A stretch of 64,000 nucleotides of DNA, from positions 32,441 through 96,440 of the forward strand of contig CAZNUN010000008.1 in NCBI GenBank assembly GCA_964576275.1, read 5' to 3'. The stretch comes from an uncultured bacterium. Lineage in GTDB: Bacteria > Fidelibacterota > UBA2242. Shown piece after piece: positions 2,533 through 41,734 of this stretch. Position 1 is the first letter of the stretch. Each line of letters begins with the position of its first letter. The notes below the pieces were generated by a model that made no database searches, was not told the DNA's origin, and worked only from the letters and a program-made list of their open reading frames with translations. The translations under genes and the position numbers were made by a program.

Positions 2533-3969
2533 ATGGTGCTTGGATTTTATTTCGGTATAGCGCTTTTAATCATTGCCGGCTTGTCCGTCAGCCGAAAAAT
2601 TAAGGGTTATATTGTTCTGCTGAGCCTGTTCAATCTCCTGCAATGGAGTCTTACGGTTTACGCTTATTTACATCTTAATTTCGAGACCGGTTTTTTCAAA
2701 GCCGATGCGCTGGCGGTTATTATGCTGATGGTGCTGAGCATCCTTTCAACGACATCTTCATATCACAGTATCTTTTATTTGCAGCATCATCACCGCTTGC
2801 ATTTCACTCCCGAACGAGCCCAGTCGATATATTACACCGGCCTCTGCCTGCTGATCATGGCGCAGACCGGCGCTTTTCTGGCCAGCCACATCGCCGTAAC
2901 CTGGATTTTCGTGGAAATCACGACCTTTGCCGCCACGGTCATGATTTACCATGAGCGCAGCGCCGAATCGATCGAAGCCGCCTGGAAATACCTGTTCGTT
3001 TGCTCGGTGGCGCTGACTTTGACATTTACCGGTATTCTGTTTCTGGGCATCGCAGCCGAAGAAGCCGGAACGGTTAATCTGTTTTACACTTCACTGGTCG
3101 CCCATGCTCCGGCTTTTAATGCATTCTGGCTGAAGATAGCCTTTCTTTTGATCCTGATCGGGTACAGCGCCAAGATGGGTATTTTCCCGATGCACACCGT
3201 CACGATTGACGCTCATACTGTCGCGCCGCCTCCGGTAAGCGCGTTTATCTCCACGACGCTGATGAATGTCGGTTTCGCAGGTATTTTCCGGATGTATGCG
3301 GTCATCGCTCCGACTTCTTCTTTTACTTGGGCCAAACATGTTCTGCTGATCGTTGGGATGTTATCTGTGTTCGTGGCGGTGGTTTATTTGGTCAGCGTCA
3401 GGCATTTCAAACGAATGTTCGCGTATTCCAGCCTGGAGAATATGGGACTGGTCGCCATCGGACTGGGAGTGGGCGGCCTGGCCTATTACGCCGCGATCCT
3501 GCATCTGATCTTGCATTCATTTACCAAAGCCAGTATGTTTTACCAGATTCAGCAGGTGCATCAGTTGTTTAGGTCTTACATCATCCGGAAAACGGGCGGC
3601 TATTTCAAGGCTTACCCGGCGGGCGCAATAGTCATGCTGTTGTGTTTTATCTGTATTGCAGGCATTCCACCGTCCGGGATGTTTATCAGTGAGTTTCTGC
3701 TGGTCGAGGCTATGTTCGCCGGCCGGATGTTCGTGATACTGGCCATTTTGCTTTTACTGCTCACATTCGCGGTCTGGGCGCTCGGGAAAAATTTCACGCA
3801 GCTGATCTTTTCCGAACCGGATCAATCGATCGAAGTCCAGTCCGAAACGCTCAATCCCGTTCACACCATTTCACAGTATGTCCTGCTGGGATTAGTGATC
3901 TATCTCGGTCTGAATCCGCCGCCGCAGATGGTCGCTCTGATTAATGCGGCTATTAACATCGTCCCATGA
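2533..3969 (+). CDS. NuoN/NuoM/HyfF-like proton-pumping antiporter subunit
   Basis: 478 aa, 14-TM-like profile. Contains 'KMGIFPMHTVTIDAHTVAPPPVSAFISTTLMNVG', the conserved broken-helix region (K...H...P) of the NuoM/N/L family. Confidence 0.6.
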   Translation: MVLGFYFGIALLIIAGLSVSRKIKGYIVLLSLFNLLQWSLTVYAYLHLNFETGFFKADALAVIMLMVLSILSTTSSYHSIFYLQHHHRLHFTPERAQSIYYTGLCLLIMAQTGAFLASHIAVTWIFVEITTFAATVMIYHERSAESIEAAWKYLFVCSVALTLTFTGILFLGIAAEEAGTVNLFYTSLVAHAPAFNAFWLKIAFLLILIGYSAKMGIFPMHTVTIDAHTVAPPPVSAFISTTLMNVGFAGIFRMYAVIAPTSSFTWAKHVLLIVGMLSVFVAVVYLVSVRHFKRMFAYSSLENMGLVAIGLGVGGLAYYAAILHLILHSFTKASMFYQIQQVHQLFRSYIIRKTGGYFKAYPAGAIVMLLCFICIAGIPPSGMFISEFLLVEAMFAGRMFVILAILLLLLTFAVWALGKNFTQLIFSEPDQSIEVQSETLNPVHTISQYVLLGLVIYLGLNPPPQMVALINAAINIVP

Positions 3970-5464: not shown

Positions 5465-6231
5465 CCAGGTCGATCATGTTTAAAACACTCAGCATTTTAA
5501 TTCATCAGGGCAAACAGTACATACCGCAACCGACCGAGGCCGAAGTACCGGGAATATTCCGCGGCCGGCCGCTGATCGGCCTGGCGGACGTTGACGAATC
5601 CGCTTTGGCGGCGGTTTGCCCGGTTCAGGCCATCGGTGTCTCTCCGGTCAGCATTGATCTTGGCAAATGTACATTCTGCGGCGAATGCGCCCTGGCATTC
5701 CCGCACAAGGTCGGTTTTACCAAAGACTATAAACTGGCCACTAATGACCGTCGCCGGCTAATCATTTCAGCCGGTGACGACCAGCCGCTGCAAATCGATC
5801 CGGTATTGGTGCGGAAAGAGATTTTTAAATATTTCCGCGGCTCGCTGAAACTTAGGCAGGTTTCAGCAGGCGGCGATAATAGTTGTGAGCTGGAGCTGAA
5901 TGCCAGCGGTAACGTGAATTTCGACGTCGGGCGATACGGCATCGAGTTCGTGGCGTCGCCGCGCCATGCCGATGGTATCGTGATCACCGGCCCGATTACG
6001 AAAAATATGGCCGAGGCGCTGGAGATTTGCTACCAGGCAATTCCCGAACCGCGCATCGTTATTTTAGCCGGAACGGATGCCATCAGCGGCGGCATCTTGG
6101 CGGACAGTCCGGCGCTGGATCGCAGTTTCCTGGAGAAACATCCTGTCGATCTTTACCTGCCCGGCAATCCGGTGCATCCGCTGACTTTCCTAAACGGCGT
6201 GCTGGATCTCATCCGCACCCGTAAAACCTGA
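5446..6231 (+). CDS. NuoI-like ferredoxin domain fused to a NuoB/HycG-like small subunit, with degenerate Fe-S ligands
   Basis: N-terminal half: 'AAVCPVQAI' and 'CTFCGECALAFP', i.e. a single CP plus one CxxCxxC. C-terminal half: 'FVASPRHADGIVITGPITKNMAEAL', the NuoB signature GSPRHAD..VTG. 'GDNSCELE' stands in for CCxxE, 'AGTDAISGG' for GxCxxxGG, and 'LPGNPVHP' for PGCPP. An alternative start is the M at 5476. Confidence 0.6.
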   Translation: MRTRFVTRSIMFKTLSILIHQGKQYIPQPTEAEVPGIFRGRPLIGLADVDESALAAVCPVQAIGVSPVSIDLGKCTFCGECALAFPHKVGFTKDYKLATNDRRRLIISAGDDQPLQIDPVLVRKEIFKYFRGSLKLRQVSAGGDNSCELELNASGNVNFDVGRYGIEFVASPRHADGIVITGPITKNMAEALEICYQAIPEPRIVILAGTDAISGGILADSPALDRSFLEKHPVDLYLPGNPVHPLTFLNGVLDLIRTRKT

Positions 6232-6289
6232 CCGATCCCGTCATTTTATTCGACGAACAGCTCTAACCGTGTTCGGAACGGCCTAAAGT

Positions 6290-6480
6290 TTACGATTTGC
6301 TCGCTAATCCTCGTTATTCGTAAAGATTTCCTAGTTCGGAACTCGGTGAAGGCAGTCTGGAACTCCGATAACTTTACGTTTTACTCCGAATTCCTCGTTA
6401 TTCGAAAGGTTAGGCCCGCTTGGAACGAACCTGAGTGACTTATGATCTAATTCTGGCTCGTTCCGAAGTAACCTGAGTTC
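6290..6480. repeat. Non-coding region with short direct/inverted repeat motifs between convergent transcription units
   Basis: 'cctcgttattcg(t/a)aag' occurs twice. 'gttcggaac' / 'gttccgaa' occur several times in both orientations. 'aacctgagt' occurs twice. No ORF. Coordinates approximate. Confidence 0.3.
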
Positions 6481-6495
6481 GTTTGCAGGAAACCA

Positions 6496-6515
6496 AGACA
6501 CGGCAGGCCGTGTCT
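6496..6515. terminator. Stem-loop between convergent genes (candidate terminator; weak U-tract)
   Basis: 'agacacggc-ag-gccgtgtct' is a perfect 9-bp stem. It sits about 5 nt downstream of the stop of the minus-strand gene ending at 6521. No clean T-run follows on either strand. Coordinates +/-2. Confidence 0.3.
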
Positions 6516-6520
6516 CTACG

Positions 6521-7111
6521 TTACATCTTTTTCGCGACCTGATAGCGGATAATGGTTTTATATTTCTCGGGATTGCCCTTGCCGAACATACCGGGATCTT
6601 TCAGATATTCCTCTTCGTGCGGTCCGATGATGGTATAACCCTGGGCCGTAATGTAATCCATCAGTTTCTGGATAGTCGGCGACTCGGTACTGTACGGCCC
6701 GATATGCAAAATTTCCGCCACAGCGCCATATTGCCAAACCTCAATCTTTAACCCGGCCGGAACTTCCTTTAATGCGGTCAGGTCTGTGACGTCGTCAGGC
6801 AGAGGCAAAGCCCACAGTCCAATCCACTGTTCCTTGGATTGGTTGAAATCCGCCAGCCAGCGGGCGCGTGGCGCGGCCGGCTGGATGTTCTTGTGCTGCT
6901 TTTTCAGAGCGAAAAAACTCTTGAATAAATTCTTCATGACCGCACCGGCCTGGTTCGGATCGCCTTTCGATTCAATGACCAGCATATTCTGGTCCGGTTT
7001 AATGCTGATCTGTGGTGCGAGCAGCTTATCGTATTCGGACAAATCGCGCCGGCAGGCGTTTAGCCCGGCCAGCAGAATCAAACTCATTGTACAAAGTACC
7101 AGTTTTCGCAT
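6521..7111 (-). CDS. Lipoprotein with a GyrI-like (AraC-effector-binding/SOUL-like) small-molecule-binding fold
   Basis: Signal peptide with lipobox 'LLAGLNAC'. Length and pattern ('...EVWQYGAVAEILHIGPYSTESPTIQKLMDYITAQGYTIIGPHEEEY') are typical of GyrI-like domain proteins. SD 'GGGGGAAGAT' lies before the ATG. Confidence 0.4.
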   Translation of the reverse strand: MRKLVLCTMSLILLAGLNACRRDLSEYDKLLAPQISIKPDQNMLVIESKGDPNQAGAVMKNLFKSFFALKKQHKNIQPAAPRARWLADFNQSKEQWIGLWALPLPDDVTDLTALKEVPAGLKIEVWQYGAVAEILHIGPYSTESPTIQKLMDYITAQGYTIIGPHEEEYLKDPGMFGKGNPEKYKTIIRYQVAKKM

Positions 7112-9340: not shown

Positions 9341-9371
9341 AAAACGTATCTGATAATTCTTTTAAATGAAA

Positions 9372-9400
9372 AATCCCCGAACGACTTCGGGGATTTTATG
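9372..9400. terminator. Rho-independent terminator, bidirectional between convergent genes
   Basis: 'aatccccgaa-cgac-ttcggggatt' followed by 'ttatgttggtttt'. Coordinates +/-2. Confidence 0.65.
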
Positions 9401-17322: not shown

Positions 17323-17356
17323 CAAAAAGTCCCGATCAATCGGGACTTTTGTTTAA
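17323..17356 (+). terminator. Rho-independent terminator of the tetR-MMPL operon
   Basis: 'aaaaagtcccgat-caa-tcgggacttttgttt'. Coordinates +/-2. Confidence 0.8.
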
Positions 17357-40864: not shown

Positions 40865-40954
40865 ATGACTTGGCTGCCGGTCGGTCTGTCGAGGTTGGAG
40901 AGCAGACAGAATAGGCGGAAGATCATGTATGGGCGCAGCCCGCTGGGCCGCGGT

Positions 40955-41002
40955 AATCATTTATCGGTTTTCCAATTTGGGCACGGCTCGCCGTGCCCCT
41001 AC
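40955..41002 (+). repeat. REP element copy 1 ('aatcatttatcggttttccaatttGGGCACGGctcgCCGTGCCCctac'), downstream of the RAYT stop
   Basis: GC-rich 8-bp perfect palindrome with a 'ctac' tail. Preceded by a second imperfect GC palindrome 'gggcgcagcccgctgggccgcgg' at about 40931-40953. Coordinates +/-2. Confidence 0.6.
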
Positions 41003-41010
41003 ATTTATTC

Positions 41011-41700
41011 TTAAAATTCATTCAGAAACCTTTCCCAGAATTTCTTCTTTTCATAAATCGGTATTTCGTTGTGGTTCTCACGGTCATATTCCCATTGGGG
41101 CGGATTGTTGATGATATACCGTCGAATTCTGTTCAATTCCTGTTCATTGCGGATAACATGTTCGTAATAATTGCGTTGCCAGACGGAATTGCCGGGTGTA
41201 TGGCGCAGGACATTGATACGTTTGGTAACGGCTGATTTAAACGATCGAACAATTGTAGGAATAGACATCGCGACTGGTCTTTGAAAACGTTCTACCGTAG
41301 TAGGGGCACAGCGAGCTGTGCCCATTGCATTTTCATTGGTATTATCACGGACACGGCAATCATTTATCATTTTTCCAATTTGGGCACGGCCCGCCGTGCC
41401 CCTACGATCATCATTAATAAAAAATATTATATGGACATGGTTTGGCATTATGACATGTTTATCGATGGCGATATATTCTCTTATCGATTCGGTTCTTTTT
41501 ATTTCCTCTTCAACAATCCTGCCCATTTCATTCAATACCATTTCACCATCTACAATCTCACCCAATAACGGCTGCCGGTCGTGGGTGCAAATCGTCACGA
41601 AATACGCCCCCGCCCGGGAATAATCAAATCCCTGCAAACGGATGGAACGACGCTTTATTCTTTTCAAGTCGATGATGATTTCCTTTCCCGGGCAATTCAT
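41011..41700 (-). CDS. REP-associated tyrosine transposase (RAYT; IS200/IS605 TnpA-like HuH enzyme) with a ~37-aa in-frame insertion encoded by two REP copies
   Basis: 'RLQGFDYSRAGAYFVTICTHDRQ' (RAYT N-terminus), 'MPNHVHIIFF' (HuH) and 'NSVWQRNYYEHVIRNEQELNRIRRYIINNP' (catalytic Tyr region). The HuH-to-Tyr spacing is ~82 aa. The segment 'RRGTAGRAQIGK...AMGTARCAPTT' is the translation of REP copies 3 and 2. Confidence 0.75.
   Translation of the reverse strand: MNCPGKEIIIDLKRIKRRSIRLQGFDYSRAGAYFVTICTHDRQPLLGEIVDGEMVLNEMGRIVEEEIKRTESIREYIAIDKHVIMPNHVHIIFFINDDRRGTAGRAQIGKMINDCRVRDNTNENAMGTARCAPTTVERFQRPVAMSIPTIVRSFKSAVTKRINVLRHTPGNSVWQRNYYEHVIRNEQELNRIRRYIINNPPQWEYDRENHNEIPIYEKKKFWERFLNEF
41300..41323 (-). 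repeat. REP element copy 2 (inverted orientation; 'gtagGGGCACAGcgagCTGTGCCC'), inside the RAYT ORF
   Basis: Same core with G>A / C>T compensatory changes that preserve the stem. Coordinates +/-2. Confidence 0.6.
41358..41408 (+). repeat. REP element copy 3 ('aatcatttatcatttttccaatttGGGCACGGcccgCCGTGCCCctac'), inside the RAYT ORF
   Basis: About 45/48 identical to copy 1, including the 5' AT-rich arm. Coordinates +/-2. Confidence 0.6.
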
Positions 41701-41708
41701 GTCATTGA

Positions 41709-41734
41709 TCCCGCATCGCGGGGAATTGCCCCTA
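41709..41734 (+). repeat. Degenerate REP-like element ('cccgcatcgcggggaattgcccctac') just upstream of the RAYT start
   Basis: Palindrome 'cccgc-atc-gcggg' plus a shared 'gcccctac' tail. Coordinates +/-2. Confidence 0.4.

Follow-up and report, generated by a model that had tools for sequence, protein, structure and literature searches.

In-frame REP hairpins within the coding sequence of a REP-associated tyrosine transposase from an uncultured Fidelibacterota bacterium

How a transposase gene comes to hold, within its own reading frame, the hairpins that are the putative substrate of its product, and what keeps them there, is the question raised by a 64,000-nucleotide (nt) stretch of DNA from an uncultured bacterium of the Fidelibacterota (assembly GCA_964576275.1, contig CAZNUN010000008.1, positions 32,441 to 96,440; hereafter the window). 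The gene concerned, at 41011..41700 on the minus strand, encodes a 229-residue REP-associated tyrosine transposase (RAYT, also TnpA_REP), into which two repetitive extragenic palindromic (REP) elements in inverted orientation are translated. Quentin, Siguier, Chandler and Fichant (BMC Genomics 2018; PMC6006769) had already described in-gene REPs as a hallmark of TnpA_Y1 subclass 2.4, and the window RAYT is therefore a new example rather than a new phenomenon. The internal doublet is probably a tolerated REP pair in a permissive loop, interconvertible in frame with a single double-foot REP; the evidence for this reading, and for its rivals, is considered below.

The RAYT gene and its internal REP doublet

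The motifs, the architecture and the type of REP indicate that the gene product is a REP-associated tyrosine transposase of TnpA_Y1 subclass 2.4, i.e. RAYT group 4. An earlier note on this DNA, made from its sequence, had called the gene a RAYT, and this identity is borne out by the open reading frame (ORF) list, Pfam, NCBIfam, Foldseek and motif evidence. The protein matches Pfam Y1_Tnp (PF01797) at 28.3 bits, the cut-off being 23. The best match of its predicted model in the Protein Data Bank (PDB), as found by Foldseek, is 4er8_A, i.e. TnpAREP bound to a REP hairpin (E 1.7e-6), and the top 30 PDB matches are, without exception, TnpAREP or IS200/IS605 transposases. The match to NCBIfam NF047646 (REP_Tyr_transpos, REP-associated tyrosine transposase, an equivalog model) scores 74.3 bits (E 9e-21), under the cut-off of 80, and is broken into two stretches by the linker insert; this is a near miss, the model having probably been built on other subclasses.

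The catalytic motifs can be placed by alignment with Escherichia coli TnpAREP (4ER8). From the codon table, the HuH motif, H88-V89-H90, at the end of strand β3 (41431..41439, minus strand, as are the other features of the gene), corresponds to H59-M60-H61 of 4ER8, W174-Q175 (41176..41181) to W94-Q95, and the Y motif, YIINNP (41101..41118), with the catalytic Tyr Y195 and N199, to Y115...N119-P120; in the phmmer alignment residues 171-202 are paired with chain residues 91-122. The segment NYYEHVIRNE, which the earlier note took for the catalytic-Tyr region, is instead the strand of the W motif (W94-Q95...E100-H101 of 4ER8), the catalytic Tyr being Y195 in RRYIINNP. The enlarged gap between HuH and Tyr that was claimed on this basis is about right in size, with 86 residues from HuH to W174 compared with ~35 in the E. 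coli enzyme, but its endpoint is not the Tyr, which lies 107 residues from the HuH motif. The E. coli enzyme (the REPtron, subclass 2.2, RAYT group 2) shares with the window protein the HuH/Tyr fold, with aligned W-Q, E-H and Y...N-P residues, and its REPs are likewise GTAG-footed hairpins flanking the gene. By contrast, it is only 16% identical in sequence, has YIHYNP in place of YIINNP as the Y motif, and its subclass has no in-gene REP, these being unique to subclass 2.4 according to PMC6006769.

A search of the window with the 24-nt pattern GGGCACGGCNCGCCGTGCCCCTAC (palindrome plus foot, up to 3 mismatches) gave three matches, at 40979-41002 (+), 41300-41323 (-) and 41382-41405 (+), all of them at the RAYT gene, compared with 0.00 in shuffled sequence. 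The first (copy 1) is in the 3' flank and the other two (copies 2 and 3) are within the gene, with GTAG-footed stems of 9 base pairs (bp) at 41002 in the flank and at 41405 and 41300 inside the gene. Copies 2 and 3 form an inverted pair with arms of 25 nt, which are 88% complementary and 56 nt apart, giving a doublet of 106 nt that resembles a REPIN (REP doublet forming a hairpin). Read codon by codon, the two copies and their spacer encode residues 99-134 (RRGTAGRAQIGKMINDCRVRDNTNENAMGTARCAPT) in frame: copy 3 (41382..41405), GTAG + GGGCACGGCGGGCCGTGCCC on the sense strand, encodes R99-A106; the spacer (41324..41381), which shares homology at 41349-41381 with the tail of the REP in the 3' flank, encodes Q107-M126; and copy 2 (41300..41323), GGGCACAGCTCGCTGTGCCC + CTAC on the sense strand, encodes G127-T134. 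The internal doublet and the REP immediately 3' of the gene belong to one family, and the reading frame is without a stop from end to end, the hairpins included. Thus the proposal in the earlier note that the extra linker consists of REP DNA read in frame, with a REP of the same family beside the gene, is confirmed.

Each single hairpin has a G+C-rich stem of 8-9 bp and a loop of 2-4 nt. Folded as single-stranded DNA (ssDNA), the single hairpins have predicted energies of -8.8 (copy 2) to -10.2 kcal/mol (copies 1 and 3), with z from -2.9 to -4.0, and the internal doublet one of -25.9 kcal/mol (z -4.75). As RNA, the folding of which had been suggested as a check, the doublet is predicted to form a long REPIN-like stem at -54.5 kcal/mol (z -4.78). 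Copy 2 differs from copies 1 and 3 by a single G:C to A:T base-pair change, which leaves the 8-9 bp stem intact and alters two codons: ACG becomes ACA, which is silent (Thr), and CGT becomes TGT, which replaces Arg by Cys. Compensatory changes that keep the hairpin of copy 2 had been proposed; the hairpin is indeed kept, but only one pair is involved, and the A:T variant is present in REPs of other species as well. The REPs listed for subclass 2.4 in Table S1 of PMC6006769 include GTAGGGGCACAGCGCGCTGTGCCCCTAC (Chloroflexus aggregans), GTAGGGGCACGGCATTGCCGTGCCC (Calothrix) and GTAGGGGCACGGC...GCCGTGCCC; since both types are among them, the G:C and A:T stem variants of the window were already catalogued.

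An AlphaFold2 model built on an alignment of 34 sequences has a confident core, with a mean predicted local distance difference test score (pLDDT) of 79.4 and 130 residues at 90 or more. Residues 103-138, between the strand bearing the HuH motif (88-95) and a helix (147-166), have a pLDDT below 50. The insert, residues 99-134, lies between β3 (88-95) and αC (147-166), and is thus predicted to occupy a low-confidence, likely disordered, β3–αC loop, i.e. the tolerant site for which the earlier note had proposed to look. The model agrees in this regard with the homology model in PMC6006769, in which the insert is peripheral and away from the DNA-binding and catalytic sites.

The window RAYT differs in nothing essential from subclass 2.4 as described in PMC6006769. 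Table 1 of that work equates the subclass with RAYT group 4 of Bertels et al. 2017 and gives its motifs as NH[IFV]H, WQ and YIxNNP, which are matched here by NHVH (87-90), WQ (174-175) and YIINNP (195-200). The β3–αC insertion of the subclass is described as variable in length and sequence, with a median HuH-Y distance of 88 residues, and its REPs as long hairpins with a 5' GT[AG]G foot, or a 'double foot', that flank the gene and are often inside it. The signature, the insertion, the GT[AG]G-footed REPs and their presence both beside and in frame within the gene are all found in the window RAYT, which comes from an uncultured genome outside the 2018 survey, has the doublet (REPIN-like) form rather than the single double-foot form, and carries a short, clade-specific C-terminal helix (residues 215-228). 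Of papers on 'double foot' REPs or 'subclass 2.4', the literature search found none later than that of 2018; neither in-gene REPs nor subclass 2.4 are treated by Corneloup et al. 2021 (PMC8266576).

Linker hairpins across homologous loci

More than 7,900 relatives of the RAYT were found among 5.8 billion proteins, and 80 genome loci from many phyla were fetched, of which 73 genes could be parsed, the linker being taken as the region from HuH to WQ; in a scan of genome contigs for relatives the best match was 51% identical. A linker hairpin of at least 8 bp is present in 62 of the 73 loci and is GTAG/CTAC-footed in 55 of the 62, while ~15% of the loci are without any linker hairpin. The insertion is neither specific to one allele, a point that the earlier note had proposed to check, nor unusual, being the published hallmark of the subclass. 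Most homologues have a single 28-nt double-foot REP, encoding RRGTARRAPT. The hairpin of a given linker recurs within 300 nt of the ORF ends in 26 loci and farther away in 12, and the density of the foot motif per kb is 8.3 in linkers, falling to 3.5 in flanks of 300 nt, 1.2 in the remaining coding sequence and 0.76 in the remainder of the loci. Within linkers GTAG is read in the phase GTA|GGG 38 times and nGT|AGG 20 times, and never in the phase giving a stop (TAG).

The HuH-to-Y spacing in the homologues ranges from 65 to 161 residues. Those without a hairpin have short linkers, with 44-52 residues from HuH to W (loci L035, L064, L070 and L077), and since such proteins exist the encoded peptide can, as judged from these sequences, be regarded as dispensable in the subclass. 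What is conserved in the remainder may be considered from several directions. The consensus linker of the 34-sequence alignment, DDRRGTARRAPT, back-translates to C-GTAGGGGCACGGCGCGCCGTGCCCCTAC, which is a perfect 28-nt double-foot palindrome. An identical 28-nt palindrome, GTAGGGGCACGGCATGCCGTGCCCCTAC, is read as RGTACRAPT at one locus (L006) and as VGARHAVPL at two others (L002 and L007), these being in different Chloroflexota genomes. Covariation was examined with 18 distinct 28-mers, selected only by their feet, against 500 shuffles and slid controls: 97.6% of cells pair, both sides are changed in 9 of the 14 pairs, and compensatory cells number 64. The observed paired cells, compensatory cells and covariation score were attained in 0/500 shuffles, the number of pairs changed on both sides in 6/500, and the slid controls pair at 37-46%. 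Among the proteins, the 120 best homologues contain 89 G-x-x-x-x-A-P-[TN] motifs; the inner residue pair of the motif can be encoded by reverse-complementary codons in 76/89 cases, compared with 13% at random, and the outer pair is compatible with such codons in 89/89. The peptide variants, including TACR, TMHR, TLQR, TLMRV, GGSRT and VLQY, are exactly those that preserve the palindrome. Because of the reading in two frames, the covariation of the stem and the reverse-complement-compatible residue pairs, these comparisons indicate that the conserved entity is the DNA palindrome and not the peptide. PMC6006769 reports nothing on synonymous-site conservation or on the use of two reading frames.

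The form of the internal element is variable. In the closest homologue (P0002, locus L171; 66-71% identical, according to the alignment used) the internal REPs are an inverted pair of the GGGCACGGCG type with a shorter spacer, of 25 nt, and in another (P0003, locus L173) a single GTAG hairpin precedes a double-foot REP of the second family, which is the one found upstream of the window RAYT (see below). In P0028 the linker loop contains about eight tandem TLGTAPT units, and at a Poribacteria locus (L049, gene 6001-6660) there are 5 identical REP hairpins in the gene and 6 more within 303 nt upstream. Such tandem expansions suggest that the linker loop is a hot spot of repeat dynamics.

Tolerance, regulation or seeding

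The probable explanation for these observations, i.e. that the doublet is tolerated, can be set out as follows. REPs would accumulate in and around the RAYT gene, local deposition by the RAYT itself being one possible cause, and within the ORF only those copies that lie in the disordered β3–αC loop and have GTAG in a stop-free phase would survive. The palindromic cores of the doublet are 78 nt (26 codons) apart and in the same codon phase, so that a switch between doublet and double-foot forms would stay in frame; slippage or recombination between the cores might convert the doublet to a 28-nt double-foot REP, and the reverse may also occur. The hairpins would stay paired since the REP fold is what the enzyme is expected to recognize. 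Palindromes are also subject to quasipalindrome mutagenesis, in which they self-correct by intrastrand template switching, giving paired changes without selection, and such templated self-correction may add to the pairing of the stems. The encoded peptide would be tolerated as a flexible spacer that is remote from the active site. In PMC6006769 the in-gene insertions are likewise treated as tolerated, and a switch between doublet and double-foot forms is suggested in general terms.

There is precedent for in-frame REPs of this kind in other genes. The REPs in coding regions discussed by Di Nocera et al. 2013 (PMC3733652) and the Rickettsia palindromic elements also add 20-30 or more residues by in-frame read-through, and are also thought to occupy permissive surface regions. 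They differ from the present case in that the genes hosting them are unrelated ones, of which many have roles in DNA synthesis and repair, whereas the host here is the REP's own putative transposase, and the same loop is used across the whole subclass.

Several observations sit less comfortably with tolerance. First, in nine homologues, at identical residues of at least four-fold degeneracy, synonymous codons are identical in 180/253 comparisons (71%) for REP codons and in 396/1176 (34%) elsewhere, though the comparison is partly circular, REP codons having been picked by the foot motif, and its pairs are also non-independent. Second, the stem-restoring change in copy 2 is non-synonymous (Arg to Cys). 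Third, the REP family is scarce in the window, where just the 3 copies at the gene and a diverged one at 6496-6519 are present. Fourth, the REPs downstream of the closest homologue (L171 1367-1530; GTAGGG(G)CGAAC.G.GGTTCGCCC) are of another family than its in-gene pair, GGGCACGGCGCGCCGTGCCC, and a further homologue (P0013, locus L174) has an internal REP pair and no flanking REPs, its RAYT lying between hsdM and hsdS. These two arrangements indicate that an internal REP can persist without local cognate copies. As regards the scarcity, the 16-mers associated with group 4 RAYTs have ~14 occurrences per replicon (PMC5581495), with which the low copy number here fits.

The best of the alternatives is that the internal hairpins are a selected cis-regulatory element, through which the RAYT would feed back on its own DNA or mRNA, transcription or translation would be attenuated, or the mRNA would be stabilized. 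It may be argued for from the conservation of DNA rather than peptide, including one palindrome read in two frames, from the higher synonymous identity in hairpin codons, from the amino acid cost of the stem-restoring change, from the very stable long-range RNA stem that is predicted and from the persistence of internal REPs without matching flank REPs at L171 and L174; moreover, Di Nocera et al. (PMC3733652) speculate that REP hairpins down-regulate RAYT expression. Yet the conservation of the hairpin is equally expected for any REP, and copy number, spacing, stem sequence and frame vary widely among the homologues, the hairpin-free loci included, which is unexpected for a conserved regulator. 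The earlier note inferred selection on structure from copy 2. That DNA and not peptide appears to be conserved is in keeping with the first part of this, but one compensated pair is no proof of regulatory selection, because a REP must fold for recognition and templated correction is possible. The more specific suggestion of a transcriptional attenuator is without support, since neither internal hairpin has an intrinsic-terminator signature on the sense strand, there being no U-tract after either, and the sole terminator-like call is antisense. Overall, regulation in cis lacks specific support and is an unlikely explanation.

It has also to be considered whether the in-ORF doublet is a heritable seed, or master copy, that links the enzyme with its cognate REP through horizontal transfer and so founds new REP populations. 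Consistent with this possibility, a near-identical hairpin, GGGCACGGC[G/A][C/T]GCCGTGCCC, is present in RAYT linkers from unrelated phyla, among them Desulfobacterota, Chloroflexota, Cyanobacteria and the FCB-like genome of the window, and the patchy distribution of subclass 2.4 fits with horizontal transfer (PMC6006769). At L174 the RAYT gene (3001-3696; JGI 3300017989, Ga0180432_10003664) overlaps hsdM and hsdS by 4 nt each, i.e. it is inserted in a type I restriction-modification operon, where its internal REPs are the only REPs. However, the gene would not survive excision of an internal REPIN, so that seeding would need a mechanism of copying without excision, which is not known for RAYTs, and the flanking REPs at L171 are of another family than the internal ones; a seeding role is more doubtful still than a regulatory one. 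A broader formulation, in which the in-ORF REP is a cis element conserved at the nucleotide level and co-inherited vertically and horizontally, acting either as a self-sensing or self-limiting binding site or as a seed copy, would explain the use of the same loop across phyla, retention at synonymous sites and at an amino acid cost, and persistence without flank REPs, but it too must be considered improbable.

A decaying pseudogene, or an artefact of assembly, in which a once shorter RAYT has been disrupted by inserted REPs, could be suggested by the NCBIfam equivalog score just under its cut-off and by the small number of REP copies in the window. Against this, the ORF is intact with every catalytic motif present, the core of the model has a pLDDT above 90, and the same architecture is the norm in intact homologues. 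Further, the DNA of the RAYT gene region is 100% identical in 7 other, independently assembled contigs (from JGI, NCBI and Logan assemblies), in which the neighboring genes are the same too and no allelic variation over the gene region was found; four longer contigs are 99.97-100% identical over up to 20.7 kb, and the identical protein is present in 12 contigs altogether. The identical DNA makes it unlikely that the open frame is an assembly accident or a frameshift artefact, so that the earlier observation of an ORF open through both palindromes stands; the gene sits at one stable chromosomal site. Decay or artefact is thus very improbable. Least credible of all is that the resemblance to REPs is coincidental and that a Gly/Arg/Ala/Pro/Thr-rich peptide (GTARRAPT) is selected at the protein level for, while RGTARRAPT is the majority consensus of the 34-sequence alignment, the translation of identical DNA in two frames in different species already contradicts such a reading, the peptide variants are exactly those that preserve the palindrome, the same hairpins occur in non-coding flanks, and the segment is predicted to be of low confidence or disordered.

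Flanking REPs, other palindromes and significance

Outside the ORF, the 3'-flank REP, copy 1 (40979..41002, minus strand; GTAG + GGGCACGGCGAGCCGTGCCC on the sense strand), begins 9 nt past the RAYT stop codon and lies between convergent genes. It forms with copy 3 a direct repeat of 69 nt (40946-41014 and 41349-41417; 84% identical) that comprises the hairpin and a tail of ~35 nt. Beyond it, at 40927..40978 (minus strand), are the tail of copy 1 and what appears, from a two-sequence alignment, to be a decayed inverted partner REP (GTATGGGCGCAGCCCGCTGGGCC on the plus strand, 40927-40949). In this alignment, which has a gap of 30 nt, the 3' flank is matched to the left end of the internal doublet, suggesting that 40927-41002 is a decayed paralogue of the whole internal doublet, shorter by 30 nt; the evidence for its left arm is modest, and the left element alone (40927-40949) folds weakly (z -0.5).

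Upstream of the gene, at 41690..41734 (minus strand), is a REP of a second family; its sense strand consists, in order, of GTAGGGGCAATTC, a loop containing the nested hairpin CCCGCGATGCGGG, and GAATTGCCC. Its arms, GGGCAATTC and GAATTGCCCCTAC, enclose a loop of 23 nt, with a GTAG foot, and the small nested hairpin is CCCGC-ATC-GCGGG / CCCGC-GAT-GCGGG. The fold of the 41690-41734 element is no better than that of shuffles (z -0.42). A near-identical composite is found downstream of the RAYT gene at L173 (1412-1462), from another metagenome, the two RAYTs being 58-64% identical, and an uninterrupted, related double-foot form, GTAGGGGCAATTCNNGAATTGCCCC, occurs at 6 other RAYT loci. The earlier note had placed REP copies of the gene's own family on both sides of it; this is correct for copy 1, but 41709-41734, which had been taken for a degenerate member, is rejected as such, being part of this second type of REP. 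The 3' arm of the element contains the start codon of the RAYT (41698-41700; MNCPG = ATG AAT TGC CCG GG). An in-frame TTG (Leu12; 41667-41669, minus strand), preceded by GGAAAGGAAA, is an alternative start, which would give the N terminus the length found in many homologues and would leave the second-family REP wholly in the 5' untranslated region. The genes around the RAYT include those for Por_Secre_tail, CarboxypepD_reg and Plug receptors, which do no more than suggest the FCB group. A look-up of protein clusters gave no name for the RAYT.

Of the GTAG-footed 9-bp hairpins in the window, just one is not at the RAYT locus, a diverged REP-like element at 6496..6519 (minus strand; GTAG + AGACACGGCCTGCCGTGTCT), directly 3' of the stop of an ORF at 6521..7111 (minus strand). 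It reads GTAGAGACACGGCCTGCCGTGTCT, i.e. GTAG + AGACACGGC-CT-GCCGTGTCT, with paired G:C to A:T changes at the base of its stem relative to the REPs of the RAYT locus. In total, the window contains 4 GTAG-footed 9-bp hairpins, 3 of them at the RAYT, compared with a mean of 0.6 in Markov-random windows. A scan of metagenomes with the 18-mer TTCCAATTTGGGCACNGC, which spans the junction of tail and hairpin, gave 83 single matches, none reaching the REP, and is uninformative as a genome-wide count of REPs because the source contigs themselves were not returned. Two perfect 12-bp hairpins, at 9370-9397 and 17325-17350 (AAAATCCCCGAACGACTTCGGGGATTTT and AAAAGTCCCGATCAATCGGGACTTTT), have A-runs and T-runs on their flanks; unrelated to the REPs, they have the look of intrinsic terminators acting in both directions. 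Rfam at gathering thresholds gave no match in the whole window.

In the work of Bertels and Rainey, REPINs are reportedly found outside genes, at tens to hundreds of copies in each genome. The doublet described here resembles them (Bertels and Rainey 2011, PMC3116915) in comprising an inverted REP pair with a spacer, in its long predicted hairpin and in its association with a single-copy RAYT. It differs in being inside an ORF and in number: the internal doublet and its one decayed 3'-flank paralogue, both at the RAYT locus, are the only two in 64 kb, and a replicating, dispersed population of near-identical doublets, such as is expected of REPINs, was not found within the window.

Taken alone, the finding changes little, as it adds one more case of a feature published in 2018. 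It does, however, raise the question of why one RAYT subclass nearly always holds its putative substrate hairpin in its own frame, on which no later paper was found in the literature searched. The use of two frames, the covariation of the stem, the excess of synonymous-site identity and the unmatched internal REPs make this question testable on existing genomes. If the hairpin is functional, whether in self-regulation or as a seed, it would bear on how RAYTs and their REPs or REPINs remain coupled in the long term and across horizontal transfer.

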